64,000 nt of DNA from Longimicrobiales bacterium (GTDB taxonomy: Bacteria > Gemmatimonadota > Gemmatimonadetes > Longimicrobiales > Gaopeijiaceae), in contig OZ220732.1 of NCBI GenBank assembly GCA_965116905.1, positions 2,272,001-2,336,000 of the forward strand, in the 5' to 3' direction. A model generated the notes under the pieces. That model searched no databases. It had not been told where the DNA came from and saw only the letters and a list, made by a program, of their open reading frames with translations. Position 1 is the stretch's first letter. Each line of letters opens with the position of its first letter. Both the position numbers and the translations under genes were made by a program. Of the stretch, positions 17,535 to 63,439 are shown one piece after another.

Positions 17535-19067
17535 TCATCGCCATTCGAGCAGTCCGGTTCTCACCATGCGTCCGTTTCTTTCGAAGAGGAGGACGAAGGA
17601 GCGTCCACTGCGCTGGGTGCGGCGCAGCTCGTCGGCGGCTTCACGGGCCGTGCGAAGCCGCCTGTTGTTCACGGCGAGCAGCACATCCCCGGCCGCCAGT
17701 CCGATGCGGCGCGCGAGCGCGTCCGAGATCTCCACCACAAGAGCGCCTTCGGCGGAGGCGAGACCCCGCTCGGCCTGGATGCCCGGCGTGACGGTCACGA
17801 CTTCCAGGTCACGCAGCAGCTCCACACGGTCGGCCGCGGCCGACGGGAGCGGCGCGGCCTGGATCTGCACGGCTCCCATCCCCTCCAGCGCCAGCTCGAT
17901 CCGGTCGCCGGCGCGGAGGTCGAGCAGCACGGCCGTGTAGTCCAGCGGGGTCGCCATGCGGCTCGATCCGGCGCGGAGCAGCCGCGACCCCTCGCGGATC
18001 CCCGCAGCCGCGGCGGGCGAGCCGCGTGTGACCCGCGCGACGCGCACGCCCCGCGACCGCCCGAAGCCGTCGGCCTCCACCGCGTCCACGCCCAGCCCCA
18101 GCCACGCGCGCTGTGCCTCTCCGTGTTCGACGAGGTCGCGAGCCACCTGGAGCGCGCGGTCGATCGGAATGGCGAACCCCAGTCCCTCGCTTCCCCCCGA
18201 GCGCGACAGGATCGACGTGTTCATCCCGATCACCTCGCCCACGGCGTTGACCAGCGGCCCGCCCGAGTTGCCCGGGTTGATCGACGCGTCGGTCTGGATC
18301 ATGCCGAGGTAGAACCCGTCGTCGTCCTGGCCCGGAATGATGTGGCGTCCGAGCGCGCTCACCACGCCGGCCGTCACCGAGGGCTCGGGGTTGGAGATGA
18401 GTCCCCCGAACGGGTTGCCGATGGCGACGGTCCATTCCCCGATCAGCAGGTCCGACGCGGTGCCGAGCGGTGCGACGGGCAGTCCCGCGGCGCCCTCCAG
18501 CGCGAGCACCGCCACATCGGTCGCGGGGTCGGACCCGGCGAGCCGGGCGTCGAAGTCGCGCCCGTCGGGCAGCGTGACCAGGATCTCGGTCGCCCCGGCA
18601 ATGACATGGTGGTTCGTCAGCACCGTGCCGCGCTCGTCCACGACAAACCCGGACCCGAGGCCACGGGTCTCCCGGAAGGGGAGGAAGTAGTCGTCGAAGA
18701 AGCTGCGGCGGCGCACCTGCTCGCGCCTGCGGACCGACACGGCGACCACCGACGGCGCCACGGTGCGGGCCGCGCGCACGATCGCGGTGGCGCGGGAGTC
18801 GGAAAGGGACTGGCCGGCAGCCCTGGCGACCTCGTTTGCGGACGCGGGAGCCAGCGCCGACGCGGGAGCCAGCGCCGACGCGGAAGCCGGCGCCGATGGG
18901 GAGGCGGGTGCCGATGGGGGAACGGAGGCCGACGCGGGAACGGAGGCCGACGGGGGAACCGGGTCGGGAACGGCCGCGCCGGGCTGCGACGGCTCGCATG
19001 CCGCCAGAAACGCGGCCAGCGCCACCGGAGCGACCCCATGTCTGGACTTCAGGGGAAACCCCGTCAC
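17535..19067 (-). CDS. HtrA/DegP-like serine protease with PDZ domains, lipoprotein
   Basis: FLAAC lipobox, GSGF, LTNHHVI, TDVAVL, QTDASINPGNSGGPL; Pro/Ala/Ser repeat linker. Confidence 0.92.
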   Translation of the reverse strand: MTGFPLKSRHGVAPVALAAFLAACEPSQPGAAVPDPVPPSASVPASASVPPSAPASPSAPASASALAPASALAPASANEVARAAGQSLSDSRATAIVRAARTVAPSVVAVSVRRREQVRRRSFFDDYFLPFRETRGLGSGFVVDERGTVLTNHHVIAGATEILVTLPDGRDFDARLAGSDPATDVAVLALEGAAGLPVAPLGTASDLLIGEWTVAIGNPFGGLISNPEPSVTAGVVSALGRHIIPGQDDDGFYLGMIQTDASINPGNSGGPLVNAVGEVIGMNTSILSRSGGSEGLGFAIPIDRALQVARDLVEHGEAQRAWLGLGVDAVEADGFGRSRGVRVARVTRGSPAAAAGIREGSRLLRAGSSRMATPLDYTAVLLDLRAGDRIELALEGMGAVQIQAAPLPSAAADRVELLRDLEVVTVTPGIQAERGLASAEGALVVEISDALARRIGLAAGDVLLAVNNRRLRTAREAADELRRTQRSGRSFVLLFERNGRMVRTGLLEWR

Positions 19068-22603: not shown

Positions 22604-23286
22604 TGGCGCGCCGGGGTGCCGCGCGGCCCGTGGCGGCGAAGGTGTGCGGCGTGATGACGCCCCGCGACGCGGGGGTGGTGGAGGGGGCGGGGGCGGACTT
22701 CATCGGCGTGATCCTCTCGCCGGGCTTCGGGCGCAGTGTGGCGGCCGAGCGGGCCGGTGCGATCTACGACGCCGCGTCGGCGCGCCGGGTCGGGGTCTTC
22801 GTGGACGCGGACGAGGGGGACGTGACCCGGATCGCGGCCGAGCTGGATCTTGACGTGATCCAGCTGGGGGGGAGCGAGAGGACCGACGTCGTGGCGCGGA
22901 TCGGGGCGGCGGGGAGGTGGGGGGTGTGGAAGACGGTCCACGCACGGCCGGACGTGCCGTTGGCGGACGCCGCGGCGCCGTACGCGGCCGTTGCGGACGG
23001 CATTCTGCTCGACTCCTGGGACCCGCGGCGCCCCGGGGGCACCGGAAGGACCTTTTCGTGGGCGGGGGTGGGCCGTGAGGTGCGGCGCGCCATCGGGTCC
23101 GCGACCCTCATCGCGGCCGGGGGCATGAACCCGGACAACGCTGCCGATGCGGTCCGGGCCCTGGCCCCCGACGTGCTCGACGTCAGTTCGGGGGTGGAAG
23201 CCGCCCCGGGGACCAAGGACGCCGGCAGAACGCGAGCCTTCGTGCGCGCGGTGAGGCGTGCGGGCAGGGAGGAGGGGGAACGTTGA
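22600..23286 (+). CDS. trpF: Phosphoribosylanthranilate isomerase
   Basis: KVCG, VGVF, GGTGRTF, AGG, DVSSGVE. Confidence 0.94.
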
Positions 23287-24473
23287 CGGCCCCGGTCCGC
23301 GAACCCGGGCGGTACGGCCCCTACGGCGGGCGCTACGTGCCCGAGACGCTGATCCCGGCGCTGGATGAACTGACGGGCGCGTACGCGCGGGCCAAGGCCG
23401 ATCCGTCGTTCCTGGCCGAGTTCGATGCTCTGAGCGCGGACTACGTCGGCCGTCCCACGCCCCTCTACCGCGCCCGCCGCTTCGAGGCGGAGGCCGGGGT
23501 CGGGCCGGTCTACCTCAAGCGCGAGGATCTGAACCATACCGGCGCCCACAAGATCAACAACACGGTCGGGCAGGCGCTCCTCGCGAAGCGAATGGGAAAG
23601 CCCAGGATCATCGCCGAGACGGGGGCCGGGCAGCACGGCGTGGCGACGGCGACCGCGTGCGCGCTCTTCGACATGGAATGCGTGGTCTACATGGGCATGG
23701 AGGACGTGGAGCGGCAGTCTCTCAACGTCTACCGCATGGAGCTGCTCGGAGCCGAGGTGCGGCCCGTCGAATCCGGGACCCGGACGCTCAAGGACGCCAC
23801 CAACGAAGCGCTGCGCGACTGGGTCACCAACGTGCGCGACACGCACTATATCATCGGCTCGGTGGTGGGTCCCCACCCCTTCCCGCTGATCGTGCGCGAC
23901 TTCCAGGCGGTCATCGGGCGCGAGGCCCGGCGCCAGATCCTCGAGGTTGAGGGTCGGCTCCCCGCATCGGTGGTGGCGTGCGTCGGGGGCGGCTCCAATG
24001 CGATGGGGATGTTTCACGCCTTTGTCGGGGACGAGGGAGTTGCCCTGATCGGGGTCGAGGCGTCCGGGCACGGGCTGGGGAGCGGCCACTCGTCGGCGCC
24101 CCTGAGCGAGGGCCGGCCCGGAGTGCTGCACGGATCGCTGAGCTATCTGCTCCAGGACGCGGACGGGCAGGTCGCGCCCGCCCACTCGATCGCGGCGGGA
24201 CTGGACTACCCGGGCGTCGGGCCGGAGCACTCCCATCTCATGGATTCGGGCCGCGCCAGGTACGTGAGCGTCGGGGACGAAGCCGCAGAGAGGGCGTTTC
24301 GGGCGCTGCCGGGGCTGGAGGGGATCATCCCGGCGCTGGAGACGGCCCATGCGCTCGCCTGGGTCGCCGCAGCGGGGCGGCGGGGCGAGATCGCGGCGCC
24401 GGTGGCCATCTGCCTGAGCGGGCGGGGCGACAAGGACGTGGTGCACGTGTCCCGTCTGGCAGTCCGTGGATAA
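23283..24473 (+). CDS. trpB: Tryptophan synthase beta chain
   Basis: [37 protein letters not shown]. Confidence 0.98.
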
Positions 24474-24705
24474 AGCCGCCCGGGCACCGAGAGCGGCGAG
24501 GCGCCGGGCCGGCAAGGCGCGACGAAAGGCCAGTAGCAGTGCTACGGGCCCGAGGAGCAACGCGGAGCACGGCCCCGACAGGCCAGAACGTAAAGTAAAC
24601 ATGACATTGTGTAAACTATGATTTACAGCGTGAAGAGGCGAGGCCGAGCGCCCGGCCCGGATGCATCGCCGTTCGAATGCCGGGGGGATTTTGTCCACGG
24701 ACTGC
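24459..24705 (+). mobile_element. 247-bp MITE-like fold-back element, copy A
   Basis: Terminal inverted repeats GCAGTCCGTGGA(T/C)AAA flanked by TG on both sides; homologous to 39993-40239 in reverse orientation. Confidence 0.8.
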
Positions 24706-24739
24706 TGGGTGGGGGGGAAGCCGGGAAGGGGGCCGTGCC

Positions 24740-25549
24740 GTGAGCGGGCGTGCGCCGGTGGGACGAATCGGTGCCCGGTTCGAGAAGCTGGCCCGGGAGG
24801 GGCGCCGCGGCTTTATCCCGTACGTTACGACCGGGTACCCGTCGCTGGCCCACACGCGTGAGATGGTGGCCGGGCTGGCCGAACTGGGCGCCGACGTGAT
24901 CGAGCTCGGCATCCCGTTCAGCGACCCGATGGCCGACGGACCCACGATCCAGCGTTCCAGCCAGGGCGCTCTGGACAACGGAACGACCGTCGACGACGTG
25001 TTCGAAGTGCTGCGGGACCTGCGGCGTACGAGCGATGTGCCGGTGGTCGTCTTTTCGTACCTCAATCCCATCTATTCGCGCGGCGTGGACGCCTTTGTGC
25101 GCGAGGCGGTCGAGGCGGGTGCCGACGGGATTCTGCCCACGGATCTCCCCCTCGGTGCCGATCCGGAGCTCGAGTCGAAAATCCTCGATTCCCCCCTGGA
25201 CCTGGTGCGCCTCGTGGCTCCGACCACGACTCCGCAGCGGGTTCGGGAGATCGCGCTGGCCAGCCAGGGGTTCGTCTACTATGTGGCGCGCACCGGCGTG
25301 ACCGGTGCCCGCGAGCAGCTGAGGAGCGCCCTGGCGGAGGAGGCGAACGCGGTTCGTTCGGTTTCGCCGCTGCCGGTGGCCGTGGGCTTCGGCGTGTCCA
25401 CTCCAGACCATGCGCGCGCGGTCGGCGCGGCCGCCGATGCCGCTGTGGTCGGGAGCGCGCTCGTCGCCCGCCTGGACGAGGGGGGAGTGGATGGGGCCCT
25501 GGCTCTGGCAGGCGACCTCAGGCGGGCCCTCGACGAGGTGTGCAGCTAG
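24740..25549 (+). CDS. trpA: Tryptophan synthase alpha chain
   Basis: IELGIPFSDPMADGPTIQ, GFVYYV, GVTG, VGFG, VVGSA. Confidence 0.97.
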   Translation: MSGRAPVGRIGARFEKLAREGRRGFIPYVTTGYPSLAHTREMVAGLAELGADVIELGIPFSDPMADGPTIQRSSQGALDNGTTVDDVFEVLRDLRRTSDVPVVVFSYLNPIYSRGVDAFVREAVEAGADGILPTDLPLGADPELESKILDSPLDLVRLVAPTTTPQRVREIALASQGFVYYVARTGVTGAREQLRSALAEEANAVRSVSPLPVAVGFGVSTPDHARAVGAAADAAVVGSALVARLDEGGVDGALALAGDLRRALDEVCS

Positions 25550-38274: not shown

Positions 38275-39992
<1,718 letters not shown>

Positions 39993-39993
<1 letters not shown>

Positions 39994-40239
39994 AAGGCCG
40001 TGGACAGAATCCCCCCGGCATTCGAGCGGCGATGCATCCGGGCCGGACGCCCGGCCACACCGTCTCATGATGTAAGGCAAAGTTTCCATAATGTCATGTT
40101 TACTATACATGTTTGTTTGTCGGGGCCGCGCTCTGCGTTACTCCTCGGGCCCGTAGCGCCGCTACTGGCCCTTCGTCGCGCCTTGCCGGCCCGGCGCCTC
40201 GCCGCTCTCGGTGCTCGGGCGGCTCTATCCACGGCCTTC
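39993..40239 (-). mobile_element. 247-bp MITE-like fold-back element, copy B
   Basis: Terminal inverted repeats GAAGGCCGTGGA(C/T)AGA flanked by TA on both sides; reverse-complement homolog of copy A. Confidence 0.8.
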
Positions 40240-40249
40240 TAGCAAGGCC

Positions 40250-41632
40250 GTGGACGGAATCCCCCCGGCATCGCGCATCCTGATTGCCGACGATCAGCCC
40301 GACGTTGTCGAGGCGTTGCGTCTTCTTCTGGTGTCGGCGGGCTATGAGTCGGAGGCCGCGGGTGGCCCCGAGGAGGCGTTGGCCAGGCTGGAGGATGGCG
40401 TCTTCGACGCCGCGCTCATCGACCTCAACTACACCCGCGACACCACCTCCGGGCGCGAGGGCCTGGACCTCCTGAGAAGGCTCCATGAGATCGACAGCAC
40501 CCTGCCCGTCGTCGTCATGACCGCGTGGGGGAGCGTCGAGAGCGCGGTCGAGGCGATGCGTTGCGGAGCCCGGGACTACATCGAGAAGCCCTGGGACAAC
40601 GATCGCCTCCTTGCCACCCTGAAGACCCAGATCCAGCTCGGCCGCGCGCTCCGCCGTTCGCAGAAGCCGAGGAACGGGGATGCGCACACCACGCGCCCGC
40701 CCGCCCATCCACGCCTGATCGCCTCGTCGAAGGCGATGAAGCCCGTTCTGAAGGTCATGCGCCGTGTCGCTCCCTCCGACGCCAACATCCTCATTACGGG
40801 GGAGCACGGGACCGGGAAGGAGGTCGTGGCGGGATGGCTGCACGCCTCGTCCGCGCGTCGGCACGCCCCGCTCGTGACCGTGAACATGGGCGGAATCTCC
40901 GAGGGTCTGTTCGAGAGCGAGCTTTTCGGGCACGTGAAGGGGGCGTTCACCGACGCCAAATCCGACCGCGCGGGGTTTTTCGAACTCGCCCACGGCGGGA
41001 CCCTGTTCCTCGATGAAATCGCCAACACCTCCCTGCCGGCGCAGGCCAGGCTCCTTCGCGTTCTCGAAACCGGCGAGCTGCAGCGCGTCGGGTCTTCCGA
41101 TGTCGTGAGGATGGATATCCGCCTTCTGTCGGCGACGAACGCCTCTCTCGACGAGGCGGTCGCCGAGGGACGGTTTCGAGAAGACCTGCTCTACCGCATC
41201 AACACCGTCGAGATCGCGATTCCGCCACTCAGGGACCGCCCCGAGGACCTCCTGCTTCTCGCCGCCCACTTCCTCGAGCGCGAGTCGGCACGCTACGGCC
41301 GGCCCGGCCTCGGCTTCACGGCCGGTGCTTCCCGTGCGATGCTGGATCATCCCTGGCCGGGCAACGTGCGGGAGCTCAAGCATGCCGTCGAGCGGGCGGT
41401 GCTCATGTGCGACGATCTGGAAGTCGGGGTGGAGGACCTCGCGCTGCGTACGCTGCCGGGTGGTGCGCTCCCGCTGGAGGAACTCAAGCTCGGGGAGGTG
41501 GAGCGCGTCCTCATCGAAAGGGCCATGGACCGGCACGACGGCAACGTCAGCCAGGCCGCCGAAAGGCTCGGCCTCAGCCGGAGCGCGCTGTACCGACGCC
41601 TGGCCCGCTACGGCATCGGCGACGTCGGGTGA
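40250..41632 (+). CDS. Sigma54-dependent response regulator (NtrC family)
   Basis: Receiver ILIADD, GEHGTGKE, ELFGHVKGAFTDA, WPGNVREL, Fis HTH. Confidence 0.95.
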   Translation: MDGIPPASRILIADDQPDVVEALRLLLVSAGYESEAAGGPEEALARLEDGVFDAALIDLNYTRDTTSGREGLDLLRRLHEIDSTLPVVVMTAWGSVESAVEAMRCGARDYIEKPWDNDRLLATLKTQIQLGRALRRSQKPRNGDAHTTRPPAHPRLIASSKAMKPVLKVMRRVAPSDANILITGEHGTGKEVVAGWLHASSARRHAPLVTVNMGGISEGLFESELFGHVKGAFTDAKSDRAGFFELAHGGTLFLDEIANTSLPAQARLLRVLETGELQRVGSSDVVRMDIRLLSATNASLDEAVAEGRFREDLLYRINTVEIAIPPLRDRPEDLLLLAAHFLERESARYGRPGLGFTAGASRAMLDHPWPGNVRELKHAVERAVLMCDDLEVGVEDLALRTLPGGALPLEELKLGEVERVLIERAMDRHDGNVSQAAERLGLSRSALYRRLARYGIGDVG

Positions 41633-43068
41633 CCCCGGACGACACGTCGGCAAAGCCGGGATCCGAATCCGCCGGACCGGTCTGCCGAGCGCCTTTTGTG
41701 GGCCGGTGGGCCCGCCTCGAATTCGACCTTCAGATCATTCTCCTGTCCAACCTGGCCGGACTGCCGGCGTTCGCGCTCGCCATGTACCTCCTCTGGACCG
41801 GAGATGTGGCGACATCGACCCGCTGGCTCGCGACCGCGGGGATTCTGCTTCTGTGGGGAGGGTTGACCGCGGTTCTGCGCGCGAGGCTTGTGCGCCCGAT
41901 CCGGACCCTGTCCAGCGTGCTGCTGGCCTTGAGGGAAGGAGACTTCTCGATCCGGACACGCGTGCCGAAGACGCTCAAGGGGCCCCTCGCGCTGGCCTTT
42001 CAGGAGACCAACAGGCTGGAAGCCATCCTGAGGGAACAGCGGCTGGGGGCCGTCGAGGCCACGGTGCTCCTGCGGAGGATCCTGGAGGAGATCGACGTGG
42101 CCGTGTTCGCCTTCGACGAGGACGAGAGGCTGCGCCTGCTCAACCGGGCCGGCGAGCGGCTGCTCGACCAGCCCTCGAAGGCCGTGCTGGGGAGTTCCGC
42201 CGCCGACCTGCGGCTGCAGGAGGGACTTGTCGGCCACGCGCCGCGAACGATGGAGGTGAATCTGCCGGGAGGACAGGGAAGGTGGGAGCTGAAGCGCACC
42301 GTCATCCGTCAGGAGGGGGCGCCCATGAAGCTCCTGGTGCTTTCGGATCTCTCCCGCGCGCTTCGCGAGGAGGAGCGTTTGGCGTGGAAGCGCATCATCC
42401 GGGTGCTCAGCCACGAGATCAACAACAGCCTTGCGCCGATCAAGTCGATCGCGAGCAGTCTGCGCAAGCTCGTGAGCGGCGATTCATCCCAGGGAAGGCT
42501 CGGGCATGATCTGTCCCGGGGGCTCCGGGTGATCGTGGGCCGAGCGGAGTCACTTGGCCGCTTCATGGCCGCGTATGCCCGCCTCGCCCGCCTGCCCGCG
42601 CCGACCCCGGTGTCGACGCCGGTCGGGCCGCTGATCCGGCGAAGCGCCGATCTGGAGACCCGGCTGAAGGTGGAGGTGACCGGCGGACCCGAACTGAGCA
42701 TCATGGCGGATCCGGATCAGCTGGATCAGCTGCTTATCAACCTCGTGCGCAACGCGGCCGATTCGGCGCTCGAGCGCGGTGGCGCGGTCAGGGTGGGATG
42801 GCGGGTGCGCGACGGAAGGTCCCTCGAAGTCGTGGTGGAGGACGAGGGGCAGGGTGTGCAGGACACCGCCAACCTCTTCGTGCCCTTCTATTCCACGAAA
42901 CCCGGTGGTTCCGGCATCGGGCTCGCGCTCTGCCAGCAGATCGCCGAGGGGCACGGGGGCCACCTGGCGCTGCGAAATCGCGAGCCTCGGGGCGCGGTGG
43001 CGATCCTGTCCCTGCCGCTGGAGACGCGGCTCCGGGAGGCGCGGTCCCGGAGCCGCGTCAGCGGCTAG
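41629..43068 (+). CDS. Sensor histidine kinase (NtrY-like, 2 TM, PAS-like)
   Basis: LSHEINNSLAPI H-box, NLVRNA, DEGQG, PFYSTKPGGSGIGL. Confidence 0.93.
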   Translation: MTPDDTSAKPGSESAGPVCRAPFVGRWARLEFDLQIILLSNLAGLPAFALAMYLLWTGDVATSTRWLATAGILLLWGGLTAVLRARLVRPIRTLSSVLLALREGDFSIRTRVPKTLKGPLALAFQETNRLEAILREQRLGAVEATVLLRRILEEIDVAVFAFDEDERLRLLNRAGERLLDQPSKAVLGSSAADLRLQEGLVGHAPRTMEVNLPGGQGRWELKRTVIRQEGAPMKLLVLSDLSRALREEERLAWKRIIRVLSHEINNSLAPIKSIASSLRKLVSGDSSQGRLGHDLSRGLRVIVGRAESLGRFMAAYARLARLPAPTPVSTPVGPLIRRSADLETRLKVEVTGGPELSIMADPDQLDQLLINLVRNAADSALERGGAVRVGWRVRDGRSLEVVVEDEGQGVQDTANLFVPFYSTKPGGSGIGLALCQQIAEGHGGHLALRNREPRGAVAILSLPLETRLREARSRSRVSG

Positions 43069-44525
43069 CGCCCGATGTCGTCACCCCCGGCGGTGATGAC
43101 GAATTCGACCCTGCGGTTCTCGGCCCAGGACTCTTCGTCCGTACCGGGAACGCGCGGCCTGTCCTCGCCGAAGTACTCCACGGTGAAACGGGCCGCGTCA
43201 ATTCCGAGTCCGGCCAGGACCTCGAGCACCGCTTCGGCTCGCAGTCTGGACAGCTCCATGTTGTATACCGGATCCCCGCGTTCGTCCGCGTGGCCTTCGA
43301 TCCGGATCTGGACTCCCGGATTGTCGCGCAGGATCCCCGCCTTGGCACGCAGCCTCGCCTGCGCCTCGTCGCTGACCGCCGCGTCGTCGTACTCGAAGTA
43401 GACCATCTCCTGGAGGGTGCGGCGGGCGGCCATGGCGCGGCGCTCCCGCTCCCTCTCGGCCGCTTCTCTCTCGGCCGCGAGGCGACGCTCCTCTTCCGCC
43501 TGTGCCCTGCGGATCGAGTCCTGGCGCATCCGTTCCAACTCCTCCGCCGACGGGCCGGGATCTGCCGGCGGGGGCGGTGGCGGCGGGGGCGGCGGTGGCT
43601 CGTCGCCGCAGAGTCCCATCCGTCCGGGGCACAGGGCAAACGAAGCCAGCACGCCGAGCTTCCTGGTCCGGAACGTGGTGTGGCTGTCGCCCGCCAGGCT
43701 CAGCGAGAAGGCCCCCACGCGAACCCCGCTGAAGTCCATTTGCACCCCGGCGTTGAGGTCGAATCCATTGAACTCGGCCATCAGGTTCAAGCCCCGCCCC
43801 CCAGCCATGCCGACATGTATCGTCGATCCGGCGAACAGGCCGCCGGAGCCCCTCTGCGCGTAGAAGTCGAGGTCACCGCCCGCCGAGAAAAGGCCCGCGC
43901 CCCAGCCGAGAGTCAGGCTGACGAAGCTCGCGTCGGAGGTGGGCAATATGGCCGTTCCGACCGCGTACGGACTCAGGTTGCTGTTGAATTCGTCCCCCTG
44001 TCCCTGGGCCTGGCGAGTGCGGTAGTCCGGGTGGCCGAACCTGGGGGGCTGCAGGTCATCTACCCAGCCGGCCCCGAAGGACGGTGACGACAGGTACCGG
44101 GCCCCAACCGCGAGCTTCACGTTTTCGGAGGTCGAGGGCAGAAGCGAGATGCGGCCGAACGCTCCCAGGATGTTGCCGCCGTTCGCCTCGTCGTCGAAGT
44201 GCTGAATCGTGGTGCCCACCTCCACGCGGTCGAAGAGCCCGAGCGTGAAGGACATGTCGGACAGCCACTTGTTGTAGGCGTCGCCCCTGCGCCGCACCTC
44301 GCCGTTTCGCCTCAGCAGCAGCGTCTGGTCGATGTTGATCCCGAATCCCGAGTACGTTGCGACGAACGTTGAGTGTGGCAGGACTGTCGCGACCGGGACG
44401 TCCAATATGCCGGAACCGTACCGGAGGGTGCTGGGCATCTGCGTGGTCTGTGCCGAGCCATCCGGCGCTACGACGAAGAATGCCGCAAGAGCGAATGCGC
44501 CAACGCGAAATCTGACCGGATTCAT
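43065..44525 (-). CDS. Outer-membrane protein: beta-barrel-like N domain, poly-Pro linker, OmpA/Pal-like C domain (copy 1)
   Basis: Signal peptide; long Pro run; YFEYD, IEGHADERG, YNMELS..RA, YFGEDRP, NRRVEF. Confidence 0.88.
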   Translation of the reverse strand: MNPVRFRVGAFALAAFFVVAPDGSAQTTQMPSTLRYGSGILDVPVATVLPHSTFVATYSGFGINIDQTLLLRRNGEVRRRGDAYNKWLSDMSFTLGLFDRVEVGTTIQHFDDEANGGNILGAFGRISLLPSTSENVKLAVGARYLSSPSFGAGWVDDLQPPRFGHPDYRTRQAQGQGDEFNSNLSPYAVGTAILPTSDASFVSLTLGWGAGLFSAGGDLDFYAQRGSGGLFAGSTIHVGMAGGRGLNLMAEFNGFDLNAGVQMDFSGVRVGAFSLSLAGDSHTTFRTRKLGVLASFALCPGRMGLCGDEPPPPPPPPPPPADPGPSAEELERMRQDSIRRAQAEEERRLAAEREAAERERERRAMAARRTLQEMVYFEYDDAAVSDEAQARLRAKAGILRDNPGVQIRIEGHADERGDPVYNMELSRLRAEAVLEVLAGLGIDAARFTVEYFGEDRPRVPGTDEESWAENRRVEFVITAGGDDIGR

Positions 44526-44628
44526 AAGTGTCTACCCCGTGGTGGGAAGGTGAAAACAGCCACACTAAAGCTACCGCTGGCCGGCACACAATGGAAGACG
44601 CTGCGCCGCAACGGGTTGCCCGTGCCCG

Positions 44629-44730
44629 CTGCCAGCAGATCGCCAAGGGACACGGAGGACGGCTGACGCTGCGGAATCGCAATCCCGGGGGTGCGGTGGC
44701 GATCCTGGCCCTGCCGCTGGAGATGCGGCC
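44629..44730 (+). pseudogene. Remnant of the 3' end of the histidine kinase gene
   Basis: CQQIAKGHGGRLTLRNRNPGGAVAILALPLE matches CQQIAEGHGGHLALRNREPRGAVAILSLPLE at 42931-43023. Confidence 0.85.
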
Positions 44731-44746
44731 GGCCTCTCGTCACCGA

Positions 44747-46216
44747 CTAGCGTCCGATGTCGTCGCCTCCGGCGGTAATGACGAACTCGACCCTGCGATT
44801 CTGCGCCCAGGACTGCTCGTCCCTGCCCGGAACGCGCGGCCGGTCCTCGCCGAAGTACTCCACGGTGAAACGGGCCACATCGAGTCCGAGTCCGGCGAGG
44901 AACTCGAGCACCGCTTCGGCGCGCCGCCTCGACAGATCCATGTTGTACACGGGGTCCCCGCGTTCATCGGCGTGGCCTTCGATCCGGATCCGTACTCCCG
45001 GATTGTCGCGCAGGATTGTGGCCTTGATCCGCAGCCTCTCCTGGGCTCCTTCGCCGACCGCCGCGTCGTCGAACTCGAAGTAGACCATCTCCTGCAGGGT
45101 GCGGCGGACGCGTATCGCGCGGCGCTCCCGCTCGGCCCGCTCCCGCTCGGCCTGCTCCCGCTCGGCCGCGAGGCGACGCTCCTCTTCCGCCTGTGCCCTG
45201 CGGATCGAGTCCTGGCGCATCCGCTCCAATTCCTCCGCCGACGGCCCGGGATCGGGCGGCGGGGGAGGCGGTGGCGGGGGAGGCGGTGGCTCGTCGCCGC
45301 AGAGTCCCATCCGTCCCGGACACAGGGCAAACGAGGCAAGCACCCCGATCTTCCTCGTCCGGAACGTGGTGTGGCCATCGCCGCTCAGGCTCAGCGAGAA
45401 GGCCCCCACGCGGACCCCGCTGAAGTCCATTTGAACCCCGGCGTTGACGTCGAATCCATCGAACTCGGCCATCAGGTTCAGACCCCGCCCGCCCCCCATG
45501 CCGAGATGGATCGTCGATCCGGCGAACAGGCCGCCGGAACTCCGCTGTGCGTAGAAATCAAGGTCGCCGCCCGCCGAGAAAAGGCCGGCTCCCCAGCCCA
45601 GGGTAAGGCTGATGAAGCTCGCGTCGGAGGCGGGCAATGTGGCCGTGCCGACCACGTAGGGGCTCAGGTTGCTGTTGAACTCGTCGCCCTGCCCCTGGGC
45701 CTGACGCGTGCGGTAGTCCGGATGCCCGAACCGGGGCGGTTGCAGGTCATCGACCCAGCGCGCGCCGAACGAGGGTGACGAAAGGTACCGGGCCCCCACC
45801 GCGAGGCTGAGATTCTCGAGCGTCGAAGGCAGAAGGGAGATGCGGCCGAAGCCGCCGAGGATGTTGCCGCCGTTCGTCTCGTCGTCGAAATGCTGAATCG
45901 TGGTCCCCACCTCCACACGGTCGAAGAGTCCAAGCGTGAAGGACACGTCGGACACCCATTTGTTGTAGGGTCCCCCCCTGCGCCTCACCTCTCCGTTCCG
46001 CCTCAGCAACAGCGTCTGGTCAATGTTGATGCCGAAGCCCGAGTACGTTGCGACGAACGTCGCGTGGGGCAGAACGGTCGCGACCGGAATGTCCAGAATC
46101 CCGGAACCATACCGGAGGGTACTGGGCATCTTCGTGGTCTGCGCCGAGCCCTCCGGAGCCACGAGAAAGAAAGCCACAAGAGCGAATGCGCCAAGGCGGA
46201 ATCTGACCGGATTCAT
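44747..46216 (-). CDS. Outer-membrane barrel-OmpA/Pal-like protein (copy 2)
   Basis: Close paralog of 43065-44525 across the full length. Confidence 0.88.
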   Translation of the reverse strand: MNPVRFRLGAFALVAFFLVAPEGSAQTTKMPSTLRYGSGILDIPVATVLPHATFVATYSGFGINIDQTLLLRRNGEVRRRGGPYNKWVSDVSFTLGLFDRVEVGTTIQHFDDETNGGNILGGFGRISLLPSTLENLSLAVGARYLSSPSFGARWVDDLQPPRFGHPDYRTRQAQGQGDEFNSNLSPYVVGTATLPASDASFISLTLGWGAGLFSAGGDLDFYAQRSSGGLFAGSTIHLGMGGGRGLNLMAEFDGFDVNAGVQMDFSGVRVGAFSLSLSGDGHTTFRTRKIGVLASFALCPGRMGLCGDEPPPPPPPPPPPPDPGPSAEELERMRQDSIRRAQAEEERRLAAEREQAERERAERERRAIRVRRTLQEMVYFEFDDAAVGEGAQERLRIKATILRDNPGVRIRIEGHADERGDPVYNMDLSRRRAEAVLEFLAGLGLDVARFTVEYFGEDRPRVPGRDEQSWAQNRRVEFVITAGGDDIGR

Positions 46217-46396
46217 GGTGTCCAACCCGTGGTGGGAAGCCAAAAGCATTCACTTTCAAGCTACCGTGCGCGCTGTTCGGGACGCAATGAAAAACACCTC
46301 GTTTCCAGCGGATTGGGCCTGCCGGTTGCTCATGGCTCACAATCGGTCCGACTCGATCGCCCCCGATATCCTGTTGCCGCACCCGCCGGCCGCCGG

Positions 46397-54168: not shown

Positions 54169-55182
54169 TCACGACACGTACTCCCTGAGCTTCGCCACCT
54201 GGTCGTGGTCGCCGAGCACGATCAGGTCGTCGCCGGCGCCGAGCCGCATGTCGGCCCTCGGGTTGAACAGGATGTCCTTGCCGGCGTCGCCGTGCTTGCT
54301 GACCGCGATCACGACCAGCCCGGTCCGCTCCGGGATCCGCGCCTCTTCCAGCGTCCGTCCCAGGATCTTCGACCGCCCGCCGACCGTGGCCTGGTCGATG
54401 TGGCGCGAGAGGTGAACCCCGGTGGAGGTCACGTCGAGGAATGAGGCGACGGACGGCCGGGTGAGCAGCGAGGCCACCCATACGGCCCCGGTCACGTTCG
54501 GGCTGACCACGTGATCGGCGCCGGCCTGATACATCTTGGCCGTCGCCGACTGGCCCTCGGCCCGTGCGATGACCACCAGCTTCGAATTCAGGTGACGGGC
54601 CGACAGGCAGACGAAGAGGTTGTCCGCGTCGGCCGAAAGGCAGGTGACGAGGCCCATGGCGGAATCGACGCCCGCTCGTCTGAGCACGCGGTCCTCGGCC
54701 GCATTGTCGTCGACGATCAGCACGTCGGGATCGACGTTGCGCAGGGCATCGCCCGCCTCGGGGTCCCTCTCGATCACGACGTACTCCTTCTTCGCGCCGA
54801 TCAGCTCCACGATGACCTGGGTCCCCATCCTCCCGGCGCCGCACACGATCACATGGTCCTTCATGCGACGAATCCTTTTCATGGTTGTACGCTTTTTGTA
54901 CGTGTTGCGTAGGTCCATCCGCACCATCGACGTGGTGATCAGGGCGAACCACGCGGCCAGTCCCGTGAGCCCGCCGATGAGCATGCATATCGTCCAGTAG
55001 CGGCCCGCCTGGGTCAGAGGGTGCACCTCGTGGTAGCCGACCGCGGTGATCGTAATGATCGTCATGTAGAACGAGTCGGCCCAGTTCCACCCCTCGATCC
55101 ACGCGTAGCCGACGGTCCCGACGCCGACGAGCAGCAGGAAGAAGGCCACGACCATCGCGACCTGGGAACCGCGAAAGATCAT
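54169..55182 (-). CDS. 2TM potassium channel with TrkA-N/TrkA-C (RCK) domains, MthK-like
   Basis: YMTIITITAVGYHEVHP pore, VIVCGAGRMG Rossmann motif, GADHVVSP, FNP...GDDLIVLG. Confidence 0.9.
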   Translation of the reverse strand: MIFRGSQVAMVVAFFLLLVGVGTVGYAWIEGWNWADSFYMTIITITAVGYHEVHPLTQAGRYWTICMLIGGLTGLAAWFALITTSMVRMDLRNTYKKRTTMKRIRRMKDHVIVCGAGRMGTQVIVELIGAKKEYVVIERDPEAGDALRNVDPDVLIVDDNAAEDRVLRRAGVDSAMGLVTCLSADADNLFVCLSARHLNSKLVVIARAEGQSATAKMYQAGADHVVSPNVTGAVWVASLLTRPSVASFLDVTSTGVHLSRHIDQATVGGRSKILGRTLEEARIPERTGLVVIAVSKHGDAGKDILFNPRADMRLGAGDDLIVLGDHDQVAKLREYVS

Positions 55183-55241
55183 GGGCGCCGCTCGTAGGTC
55201 ATGGGTACCGCTCGAAGATCATGGGCGCCGCTCGAAGATCA
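55176..55241 (-). repeat. 3 x 20-bp tandem repeat at gene junction
   Basis: AGATCATGGGCGCCGCTCG(A/T)-like unit x3, spanning the hydrolase stop and the channel start. Confidence 0.9.
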
Positions 55242-61528: not shown

Positions 61529-63439
61529 TCAGCGCGCATCGCGCTTTCGGTTGGCCCTCTTGGCAGTCGGCCGATTCCGCGGCATGCGCTCCATGAGCGC
61601 CCTCTCCCTGGCCTCCTCAAGATCAGCCCGCAGATTCGCCCTCAGCACGTCGCCTGCCTGCCCCGTCACACCCGTCGCAGCGGCCTCACCGGTCGCGGCT
61701 CCGGCCTCATCTCGTGCGATGCATTCCTTCAGGTTGACGGTGCCACCCGTGGACGTGCGTTGCGGATTCACTCGCACATGCCCGGGGATTCCCCGAAGCC
61801 GCCACTGTAGCGGAATGCAGCCGGAGAAACGGTTTCGGCGGACATCGCCGTAGGAGAGGAGGGGCACGGAGCCTGTCAACTCGTTGCCTGCAATAGAGAT
61901 GAAGCTATCGACCTCGTATAGCGAAAGGCTGTCGAGCTCGACCGGTGCCGGTCCTGAGAATGCGTTGTTGTCCGCGAACAGGTAGGTGAGAGGGTATCGG
62001 TCACTGTCCCAGTCATGCAGGAATGCCGACCGCACGAACTCGCCCGATATCGCTCCCGAAAGACTGTTGTCGTCCAGCCACAGGACTTCCAGCACCTCCA
62101 GGCCCCCCAGTTCCGGCGGAATCGACCCCGTCAACTGGTTGTCCTGCAGTTCCAACGATCTCAGACGGTTGAGCTGACCCAGCTCCGGCGGAATCGCGCC
62201 CGTCAGCCGGTTGCCGGCAAGAGACAGATCCCGCAGCCCGGACAGGTCACCAAGCTCCGGCGGGATGGACCCGGTGATTTCGTTGTCGTTCAGGAGCAGG
62301 AACCCGAGATCGTCCAGGTTGGTCAACTCGGACGGGAGTCCGGTTAATTCGTTGTGGGCGAGGGTGAGAAACCGGAGGTTGGCGAGGTCACCAAGTTCCG
62401 ATGGGATGCCGGTCAGGTTGTTTCCTGAAAGGTCCAACACCTGAAGATTGCCCAGGTTGCCAAGTTCCGCCGGGACGCTGGTCAGCCCGAGATCCTCGAG
62501 GGTCAATCCCACGAGGCTGTCGATGTCGCCAAGTTCCGGTGGAATGGAACCCGTCAGCCGATTCGTGCCCAGCGACAAATACAAGAGGCCATCCATGCTG
62601 CCGAGTTCCGATGGAATCGATCCGGTCAACTGATTGTGGTTGAGCAACAACTCTTCGAGATTGGCCAGTTCAGCGAGTTCGACGGGGATCGATCCCGTCA
62701 GTTGATTCCCGGCCAGGATCAACTCCTCGAGATCGGCCAGCTCGCCGAGTTTGGCGGGGATCGATCCCGTCAGCTGATTCCCGGCCAGGTACAACCGAAC
62801 GAGATTGTCGAGATTGCCCAGCTCTGGCGGGATTGAACCCGTGAGCCCGTTCTCGTCGAGATCCAGGACGTTCAGGCTGGACAGGTTGCCGAGTTCCGCC
62901 GGGATCGAGCCCGTCAGTCGGTTCGCCCAGAGATCCAGGACTTCGAGGCTGGACAGGTTGCCGAGTTCCGCCGGGATCGAGCCCGTCAACCGGTTGAAAG
63001 AGAGGTCCAGTTCCTCCAGGTTGCCCAGGCTGCCCAACTCCGCCGGGATCGAGCCCGTCAACCGGTTTTCGGTCAGCTCCAGGAGTTCCAGGTTGCTCAG
63101 GCTCCCGAGTGCCGGCGGGATCGACCCGGACAGGTTGTTGTCATTCAGCCACAGCTCTCGTACCCGGCCGGTCGTATCCACACTGACGCCTTCCCAGCGT
63201 TCGATCGACGGCTCGGTCGTCCAGCCGCCCTGATAGTACCATTCCGGACCACCGGTAGCGTGATAGAAGGTCTCGAGGATTTCGCGGTCAGTGGGCGCAT
63301 TGGGCGCCGCACTATGAGCCTGTGCCTCGGCGGAAGGCACGGTTTCGGCAATTGGCGCCACTACCTCTGCGGCGTCTGAAGTGCAGGCCACAGGCACGAG
63401 GCACACCACCGCTGCACTGGTCCAGAAGCGATTCAACAT
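61529..63439 (-). CDS. Plant-type leucine-rich-repeat lipoprotein (eukaryote-like protein)
   Basis: About 16 repeats LxxLxLxxNxLTGSIPxELGxL; N-cap DREIL..FY.ATGG..W...W.GV; PVAC lipobox; GGAGG RBS. Confidence 0.92.
   Translation of the reverse strand: MLNRFWTSAAVVCLVPVACTSDAAEVVAPIAETVPSAEAQAHSAAPNAPTDREILETFYHATGGPEWYYQGGWTTEPSIERWEGVSVDTTGRVRELWLNDNNLSGSIPPALGSLSNLELLELTENRLTGSIPAELGSLGNLEELDLSFNRLTGSIPAELGNLSSLEVLDLWANRLTGSIPAELGNLSSLNVLDLDENGLTGSIPPELGNLDNLVRLYLAGNQLTGSIPAKLGELADLEELILAGNQLTGSIPVELAELANLEELLLNHNQLTGSIPSELGSMDGLLYLSLGTNRLTGSIPPELGDIDSLVGLTLEDLGLTSVPAELGNLGNLQVLDLSGNNLTGIPSELGDLANLRFLTLAHNELTGLPSELTNLDDLGFLLLNDNEITGSIPPELGDLSGLRDLSLAGNRLTGAIPPELGQLNRLRSLELQDNQLTGSIPPELGGLEVLEVLWLDDNSLSGAISGEFVRSAFLHDWDSDRYPLTYLFADNNAFSGPAPVELDSLSLYEVDSFISIAGNELTGSVPLLSYGDVRRNRFSGCIPLQWRLRGIPGHVRVNPQRTSTGGTVNLKECIARDEAGAATGEAAATGVTGQAGDVLRANLRADLEEARERALMERMPRNRPTAKRANRKRDAR

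Follow-up and report, generated by a model that had tools for sequence, protein, structure and literature searches.

A 245-bp MITE, present twice in the 64,000-nt stretch of DNA analysed here (the window), carries in its centre a predicted operator of the regulator of modAB. We assign a probability of roughly 0.7 to the overall reading that this MITE is moved by an IS1182-like transposase and that the regulator is now a chromosome-wide binder. The operator cassette in the centre of the MITE is the main novelty and was overlooked in the original prediction for this DNA. The 4.2-Mb source genome is designated G000, and other G-numbers denote the relatives compared with it; the features of the window are collected in Table 1.

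The mechanism that we propose would run as follows. An IS1182-like DDE transposase would cut and paste the 245-bp MITE in trans into CTAG-like sites, a 170-bp backbone having presumably captured the autoregulatory operator of the regulator early in the genus. Two regulator dimers would bind side by side with a 21-bp period, and the regulator would have turned into a chromosome-wide binder instead of a promoter-specific one, with the MITE as one supplier of new sites. Selection would keep the half-sites intact only while the regulator is present; where the regulator is lost, the cassette would drop out between its direct repeats. The arms, rich in G.U or G.T pairs, would hold both ends together by pairing on one strand, their match being restored repeatedly by independent double changes.

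Table 1. Positions of the MITE copies, their parts and the neighbouring genes in the window
Feature	Position	Strand	Remarks
trpB	23283..24473	+	C-terminus shortened by copy A, ends SRLAVRG
Left target duplication of copy A, CTGG	24456..24459	+	Empty allele has a single CTGG
MITE copy A, 245 bp, ends CAG...CTG	24460..24704	+	Inside the last codons of trpB
Left terminal inverted repeat of copy A, CAGTCCGTGGATAAA	24460..24474	+	Same as left end of the partner IS
Internal hairpin, GTAGC/GCTAC core	24527..24551	+	Covarying pairs, columns 72-88 and 74-86
75-bp cassette (approximate limits)	24574..24648	+	Between direct repeats of ~10 bp; missing from the 170-bp form
39-bp double palindrome of copy A, predicted tandem operator	24589..24627	.	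40.4 bits; native operator 40.9
Right terminal inverted repeat of copy A	24690..24704	+	
Right target duplication of copy A, CTGG	24705..24708	+	
trpA	24740..25549	+	GTG start no longer overlapped by the trpB stop
Methylmalonyl-CoA mutase N-terminal subunit	38275..39993	+	Its TAG is the target of copy B
Flanks of copy B	39990-39993; 40239-40242		TTAG; CTAG
MITE copy B, 245 bp, variant ends AAG...CTT	39994..40238	-	Directly 3' of the mutase stop codon
39-bp double palindrome of copy B	40071..40109	.	36.5 bits
Older relic right end adjoining copy B	40243..40271	-	AAGGCC variant, as copy B

A mobile element and its partner insertion sequence

Two inverted 247-bp copies had been described at 24459-24705 and 39993-40239, and they indeed align without gaps, with 212 of 247 positions identical. 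The net length of 249 bp implied by the earlier description (247 bp with TA flanks) also stands, while the element itself is corrected to 245 bp plus a 4-bp target duplication, because copy A is flanked by CTGG on both sides, the tandem period is 249 bp, and 12/12 partner insertion sequences (IS) show such duplications. The outer G and C of the 247-bp unit are most likely the inner bases of this duplication. The alternative of 247 bp plus TA adds up to 249 bp as well and agrees better with copy B and two empty sites; identical perfect 4-bp flanks were found in only 24 of 103 collected MITE copies, and the inner bases of the flanks are better conserved than the outer bases.

G000 contains eight full copies, three 170-bp copies and many half-ends (59 ends counted). 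Both the 245-bp and the 170-bp forms have terminal inverted repeats of 14-15 bp and are short, non-coding, multi-copy and dispersed, as expected of bacterial MITEs, and target-site duplications, empty sites and an autonomous IS with matching ends were all found. The element is present in 22 of 24 genus genomes, 4 of 16 others giving no more than weak matches, and the named records that contain it are nearly all MAGs of Gemmatimonadota/Longimicrobiales. Most sequencing runs containing this stretch are labelled sponge metagenome, and the genus is mostly sponge-derived. Copy A had no DNA match in a plasmid collection. Head-to-tail MITE arrays with periods of 249 or 171-175 bp occur in G051, G059, G064 and G197, which suggests re-insertion into the element's own duplicated target.

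Empty alleles, which had been named as a check on mobility, were found at site A in relatives and at both sites between strains. At site A, 30 loci were compared, of which two had no trpB anchor; a full copy is missing from all 27 relatives in which both anchors are present. Three relatives have 107 bases where G000 has 356, a difference of 249, and one CTGG instead of two. In 3 of 4 public runs there are contigs in which exactly 249 nt are missing at this site, with 4 ambiguous letters, and one contig that skips copy A shows otherwise 16 differences from the window in about 1150 letters. For copy B, 2 of 4 runs yielded contigs without it that are otherwise identical and have 3 letters in place of 246. 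These skipping contigs indicate that copies A and B are polymorphic at the strain level. Both copies look recent, and copy B very recent. The relic right end beside copy B is retained in strains without copy B, and a similar relic is found in G001; G005 carries the 170-bp form at the same position as copy B.

Through the recent insertion of copy A, TrpB has become shorter, and trpB and trpA no longer overlap. The TrpB ortholog of G062 ends in SRLGGGEAGKGELP, and its stop codon overlaps the trpA start, whereas the present trpB stop of G000 is a TAA at 24471-24473, within the left terminal inverted repeat of copy A. CTAG occurs in G000 at 0.28 of expectation, and this scarcity helps explain why insertions are found at stop codons.

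The original prediction had also proposed a non-autonomous element, possibly moved by an IS5/IS1182-like transposase, with no transposase in the window. None was found among 16 large ORFs scanned in the window, and a genome-wide profile search of G000 gave no matches to PF05598, PF01609 or PF01797. Together with the empty sites, ends in common with an IS from relatives support the proposal: transposases with DUF772 are present in 31 of 53 genus genomes, and 30 transposase loci that were fetched yielded 12 complete elements of 1496-1536 bp with MITE-type 15-bp ends CAG[T/G/C]CCGTGGA.AAA. Each of the 12 is bounded by a perfect 4-bp duplication, CTAG in 11 cases and ATAG in one. The transposase is encoded by a single 476-aa ORF in locus L024 and scores above the cut-off for PF05598 (DUF772), PF01609 and PF13751. 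Among seven NCBIfam models IS1182 was the best, at 193 bits against a cut-off of 270, and the IS5 models were likewise below their cut-offs. Judged by these profile scores, the partner enzyme is IS1182-like without being an IS1182 member, and it is the likely mover of the MITE. Its nearest plasmid relatives are 46-52% identical, one of them labelled IS5 family. G000 itself holds only a 104-aa transposase fragment with 59% identity, and an intact partner transposase is absent from it although copies A and B look recent. The MITE thus resembles an IS1182/IS5-type DDE IS with DUF772 in sharing its 15-bp ends, with a CTAG duplication in the partner IS, while by eye its interior looks unrelated to that of the IS. 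An origin as a REP/REPIN with a RAYT was rejected, since PF01797 had no matches in G000 and the ends and duplication are of the DDE type.

The central cassette and its candidate regulator

The 245-bp form differs from the 170-bp form by an additional 75 bp, which are flanked by short direct repeats. Whereas the 170-bp form is found also in sister genera (g14, 4/5; g18, 1/1) and in another family (4/7), the genus-type cassette motif occurs in 7 of 10 genus genomes versus 2 of 190 others. The double palindrome within the cassette (the box) has the consensus TGTMAA-N6-TTKACA-N3-TGTMAA-N6-TTKACA. In 69 copies not selected on the box, its half-site columns, chosen after the alignment had been seen, are 96% conserved, versus 68% for the spacers and cassette flanks. 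No covariation was detected in the box in either pairing scheme, and conservation of sequence without covariation is characteristic of double-stranded DNA sites recognised by a protein. The same lack of covariation led us to reject a hairpin or cruciform function of the box. Two divergent sigma-70 promoters with TTGACA-like hexamers were also considered and rejected, as the last T of the -10 element is not conserved and a promoter scan found none.

The half of the box, an 18-bp palindrome TGT(A/C)AA-N6-TT(T/G)ACA, is listed among XRE Motifs 24, 25 and 27 (PMC12565409, Table S1). According to the accessible part of that source, Motif 24, paired with a protein other than the present regulator, gave a shift in EMSA, and its proteins have 2.2 sites each on average. 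The 18-bp unit TGTMAA-N6-TTKACA is conserved here by sequence, as in an XRE tandem operator. As far as that part of the source goes, the likeness extends to the arrangement of about two palindromes per protein beside small XRE proteins with an SRQ helix; in contrast to Motif 24/25/27 sites, which are described there as local and autoregulatory, the site studied here is found chromosome-wide and in a MITE, and the candidate regulator carries a fused PBP domain that binds molybdate.

Of 15 foreign loci, hand-picked from non-repeat matches in unrelated genomes and metagenome contigs, 12 have the double box next to small SRQ-helix XRE proteins, and three more such cases were found. Only one of the 20 HTH_3 proteins of G000 has an SRQ-type helix, namely a 370-aa HTH-PBP protein (gene at G000:C1:977773-978885, minus strand) that heads modA-modB and shares 46% identity with one of the small XRE proteins over 61 residues. 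A double box lies 32-191 bp upstream of the regulator gene in 47 of 48 genus orthologs, as expected of an operator of its own gene; the exception, G023, has a diverged regulator with an altered helix and no boxes genome-wide. The sister genus has a site upstream of the regulator in 3/3 cases, as a variant scoring 12-21 bits. With a relaxed pattern, G197 and G183 of that genus give exactly one site each, preceding the regulator gene, and G199 has seven further dispersed sites with the variant half-sites of that genus; remnants of MITE arms lie near three of the seven. These observations predict that the box is the operator of the XRE-HTH/molybdate-binding regulator of modAB; another protein of the same specificity is possible as its binder.

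The presence of boxes follows that of the regulator. This protein was not found in G008, G011, G016, G057 and G064, which have 0, 0, 1, 0 and 0 box matches, respectively, while the other 47 genus genomes (G023 apart) have 3 to about 250 boxes. On a tree of one gene (mutase), the genomes without boxes belong to three separate lineages, so that the co-occurrence amounts to about three independent losses on this one-gene tree. As predicted beforehand, 16 of 16 complete MITEs from G016, G064 and G017 are 169-171 bp long, and 30 loci from these three genomes contain no box. In G017 the HTH region is frameshifted, possibly through an assembly error, and there are five MITE-type box matches elsewhere in the genome. 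The highest box densities occur in the smallest box-rich genomes, G019, G044 and G059 (68-250 boxes in 2.1-2.9 Mb), whose regulator matches only to residue 226-228, the PBP sensor domain being cut short.

Sites across the chromosome

A box matrix trained on 25 solo sites, with the MITE sites left out of training, detected 38 sites in G000 at >=22 bits (30 solo and 8 in MITEs) and none in three local shuffles at the same threshold. The solo boxes in G000 lie in tandem, divergent and convergent gaps in numbers of 14, 8 and 4, close to the 13.6, 8.6 and 3.8 or so expected from gap length, and four of the 30 are inside ORFs. In-frame boxes occur within conserved ORFs, for example those of an SMC and a P-loop protein. 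Among 62 + 62 proteins encoded beside solo boxes we found no molybdenum theme and no shared pathway, and a molybdenum or other coherent regulon was accordingly rejected for this set. Twelve sites are near ori and six near ter, with nine expected, which shows no clear bias; oriC of G000 is near 0.88 Mb (dnaA, two parS) and dif at 2.93 Mb.

In G000, 19 of the 30 solo boxes that three close species have at syntenic positions are present as well, and the remaining 11 are missing or decayed; a further 16 could not be placed, and an additional partial comparison gave one shared and three absent. One solo box is found 164 bp upstream of the glutamine synthetase III gene in at least three species. MITE arms stand beside 13 of 30 boxes in G059 versus 0 of 30 in G000, and although one G000 solo box differs from the MITE boxes at two positions, most differ at 8-13 of 39. 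The MITE therefore demonstrably supplies sites in some lineages; for G000, the missing arms and the 8-13 differences leave a MITE origin of the solo sites mostly unsupported, and many solo sites may be of other origin, for instance from a 21-bp tandem duplication as seen in G061.

Several box-like sequences were noted in passing. At about 18,900-19,000 of the window (G000:C1 about 2,290,900), G062 and G005 have a solo double box and G000 has none; near that spot G000 has an 18-bp tandem repeat (18819-18962). Two different AMP-binding enzymes, at G000:C1:1363440 and in G001, have an in-frame double box before the SG(G/S)(T/S) loop, and a near-identical sequence recurs in at least seven genus genomes. 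On G024:C101, three YhgA-like/Rpn genes stand in a row, two of them with a double box ~125 bp upstream; an association of boxes with Rpn/YhgA genes was rejected, being confined to this one contig and absent in G000. An AT-rich high-copy repeat with CACTG ends and several TGTAAA/TTTACA units gives exact matches to the box pattern in many metagenome contigs and is probably a eukaryotic host transposon unrelated to the box.

What the chromosome-wide sites might do was weighed against two other accounts of them. An ordinary MITE could carry a passenger operator that is bound by the regulator, its copies titrating the protein or doing nothing, while the solo boxes are a separate regulon evolved by the host. 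Such a history would suit the 30 G000 solo boxes without nearby arms, the 19 of 30 syntenic boxes common to the species, and the box before glutamine synthetase III. We nevertheless consider it unlikely, given half-sites that stay 96% conserved against 68% in drifting cassette columns, solo-box gap types that track gap length with 4/30 boxes within ORFs, and neighbours without a molybdenum theme. Still less probable in our judgement is a role of the double box in recombination or attachment, by Xer or another tyrosine recombinase, in which the boxes would delimit accessory gene cassettes and the MITE would carry one as a landing pad. The box arms lack the 6-8-bp spacer of dif geometry, matches of the XerC/D type are found in box-less genomes as well, the sole box of G197 and of G183 is the regulator promoter site, and boxes lie in frame in conserved ORFs; all this outweighs the resemblance of the XerD arm of the G000 dif to a box half-site, the accessory genes that boxes often flank, and the 11 of 30 syntenic boxes absent or decayed in G000. 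A dif/Xer site proper was discarded, as the true dif is at 2.93 Mb and the XerD-like arms overlap with no conserved XerC arm, and so was a Ter-type site, whose geometry and position do not fit.

If the regulator does bind these sites chromosome-wide, their role may, by analogy with IHF on Correia elements, be architectural (bending, bridging or road-blocking) and not one of molybdate control of neighbouring genes; this is the weakest step of the argument, and we would give it even odds. A further suggestion is offered only tentatively: the MITE may have captured the operator of a local molybdate-transport repressor and dispersed it over the chromosome, so that this metal-sensing XRE regulator became a nucleoid organiser peculiar to the genus and possibly switched by molybdate, with 3-250 sites per genome, even inside coding sequences. 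Nucleoid-protein sites such as matS, parS, NBS and SBS are present as tens of promoter-independent palindromes per chromosome, some of them within ORFs. The boxes differ from these in having no clear ori/ter bias and 0-250 copies within one genus, and in that the candidate binder is a metal-transport regulator. In eukaryotes, transposons are well known to spread transcription-factor sites, and the nucleoid-organiser proposal, if true, would provide a bacterial case. Natural controls exist in the cassette-less ancestral form, the single-operator sister genomes, the genomes without regulator and boxes, and the empty alleles between strains; moreover, because the candidate protein, site, transposase and element are all named, binding and effects on transposition are directly testable in E. 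coli.

The closest described parallels are the Correia elements (CREE) of Neisseria and QMITE1 of Coxiella, which the accessible parts of two sources present as hairpin MITEs with a central IHF site (PMC10969869; PMC5896051). On that description, the present element shares with them the form of a non-autonomous hairpin MITE beside genes with a central site for a host protein, predicted in our case. It differs in its cargo, a predicted operator of a specific, ligand-sensing local regulator and not a generic IHF site, as well as in its IS1182-like partner, its CTAG target, and a cassette whose presence tracks the regulator across genomes. The 2024 review of bacterial MITE roles (PMC10969869) lists, in its accessible text, promoters, IHF sites, RNase cleavage, insertional knock-out and sRNAs, and that text names no operator of a specific regulator among MITE cargos. 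Control of modABC of the ModE type involves other motifs in the portion available of PMC545781. A word search of the accessible text of PMC10469786, which probably concerns the relevant order, found no 'transpos', 'molybd' or 'repeat'. We found no description of this element or of an XRE-operator MITE in the literature searched, bioRxiv supplements and most subscription papers lying outside the search.

Arm pairing and the RNA question

The original prediction described a fold-back element with mirrored changes at its termini and compensatory changes in a GTAGC/GCTAC hairpin. These changes are present in the sequence of both copies, and the folds of copies A and B are far more stable than those of all 200 shuffled versions of each (z -7.5 and -9.0). 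In an alignment of 69 distinct 245-bp copies, 45 named pairs are 95.3% paired, a figure to be read with the right arm having been selected by the search pattern in most copies. Constraint on the arm structure is borne out by 12 pairs changed on both sides, no measure being reached in any of 500 shuffles. On a tree built without the tested columns, both-side changes occurred eight times at pair 14-232 and four times each at 1-245 and 184-190; pair 72-88 underwent three changes to a standard pair, and pair 51-195 one change, a subfamily trait. The covariation that had been proposed as a check holds up in the arms, where it recurs and is strand-specific. Some of the mirrored terminal changes, however, probably arose by copying between ends and not by stepwise selection, because the AAGG ends of the very recent copy B equal those of the adjoining relic.

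The pairing favors one strand. Cells that are not Watson-Crick include 270 of the G.U type versus 14 of the A.C type, and the top strand folds better in 69/69 copies. Neighbouring host genes, called around the insertions with our own codon model, are oriented opposite to the top strand in 28 of 31 co-directional cases; of 99 insertions, 35 have a stop codon directly at the right end and five have one at the left end. For 33 of 47 ends the top strand is opposite the leading strand, a tendency confounded with gene direction. Since pairing is constrained on the strand that host mRNA seldom carries, we infer a constraint at the DNA level or on antisense, or a purging of the sense orientation, any of which fits better than a cis-acting mRNA element.

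The possibility that the element is mainly a structured RNA family with incidental mobility was assessed on these data. The arm covariation, which exceeds 500/500 shuffles, the G.U-type excess and the uniformly better fold of the top strand speak for such a family, but the asymmetry is no different for G.T pairs in single-stranded DNA. Near-identical strains differ in the insertion, host transcripts read the weaker strand in 28/31 co-directional contexts, a scan found no consensus promoter or terminator, and Rfam gave no match at gathering in the window and none at E<=5 on copy A. The sole RNA run consists of contigs only, which cannot show a transcript. We hold this account to be very unlikely, and the earlier suggestion of a stand-alone structured ncRNA family found no support, the element being insertionally polymorphic, without consensus promoter or terminator, and read by host transcripts mostly on the worse-folding strand.

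Further repeats were observed elsewhere in the window. Two tandem OmpA/Pal-domain paralogs, 85-90% identical in parts, lie on the minus strand at 43065-46249, three repeats with a 20-bp period (55175-55241) are located upstream of an unannotated 495-aa ORF, and a 636-aa leucine-rich-repeat protein with 72-bp repeats is encoded at 61529-63439.
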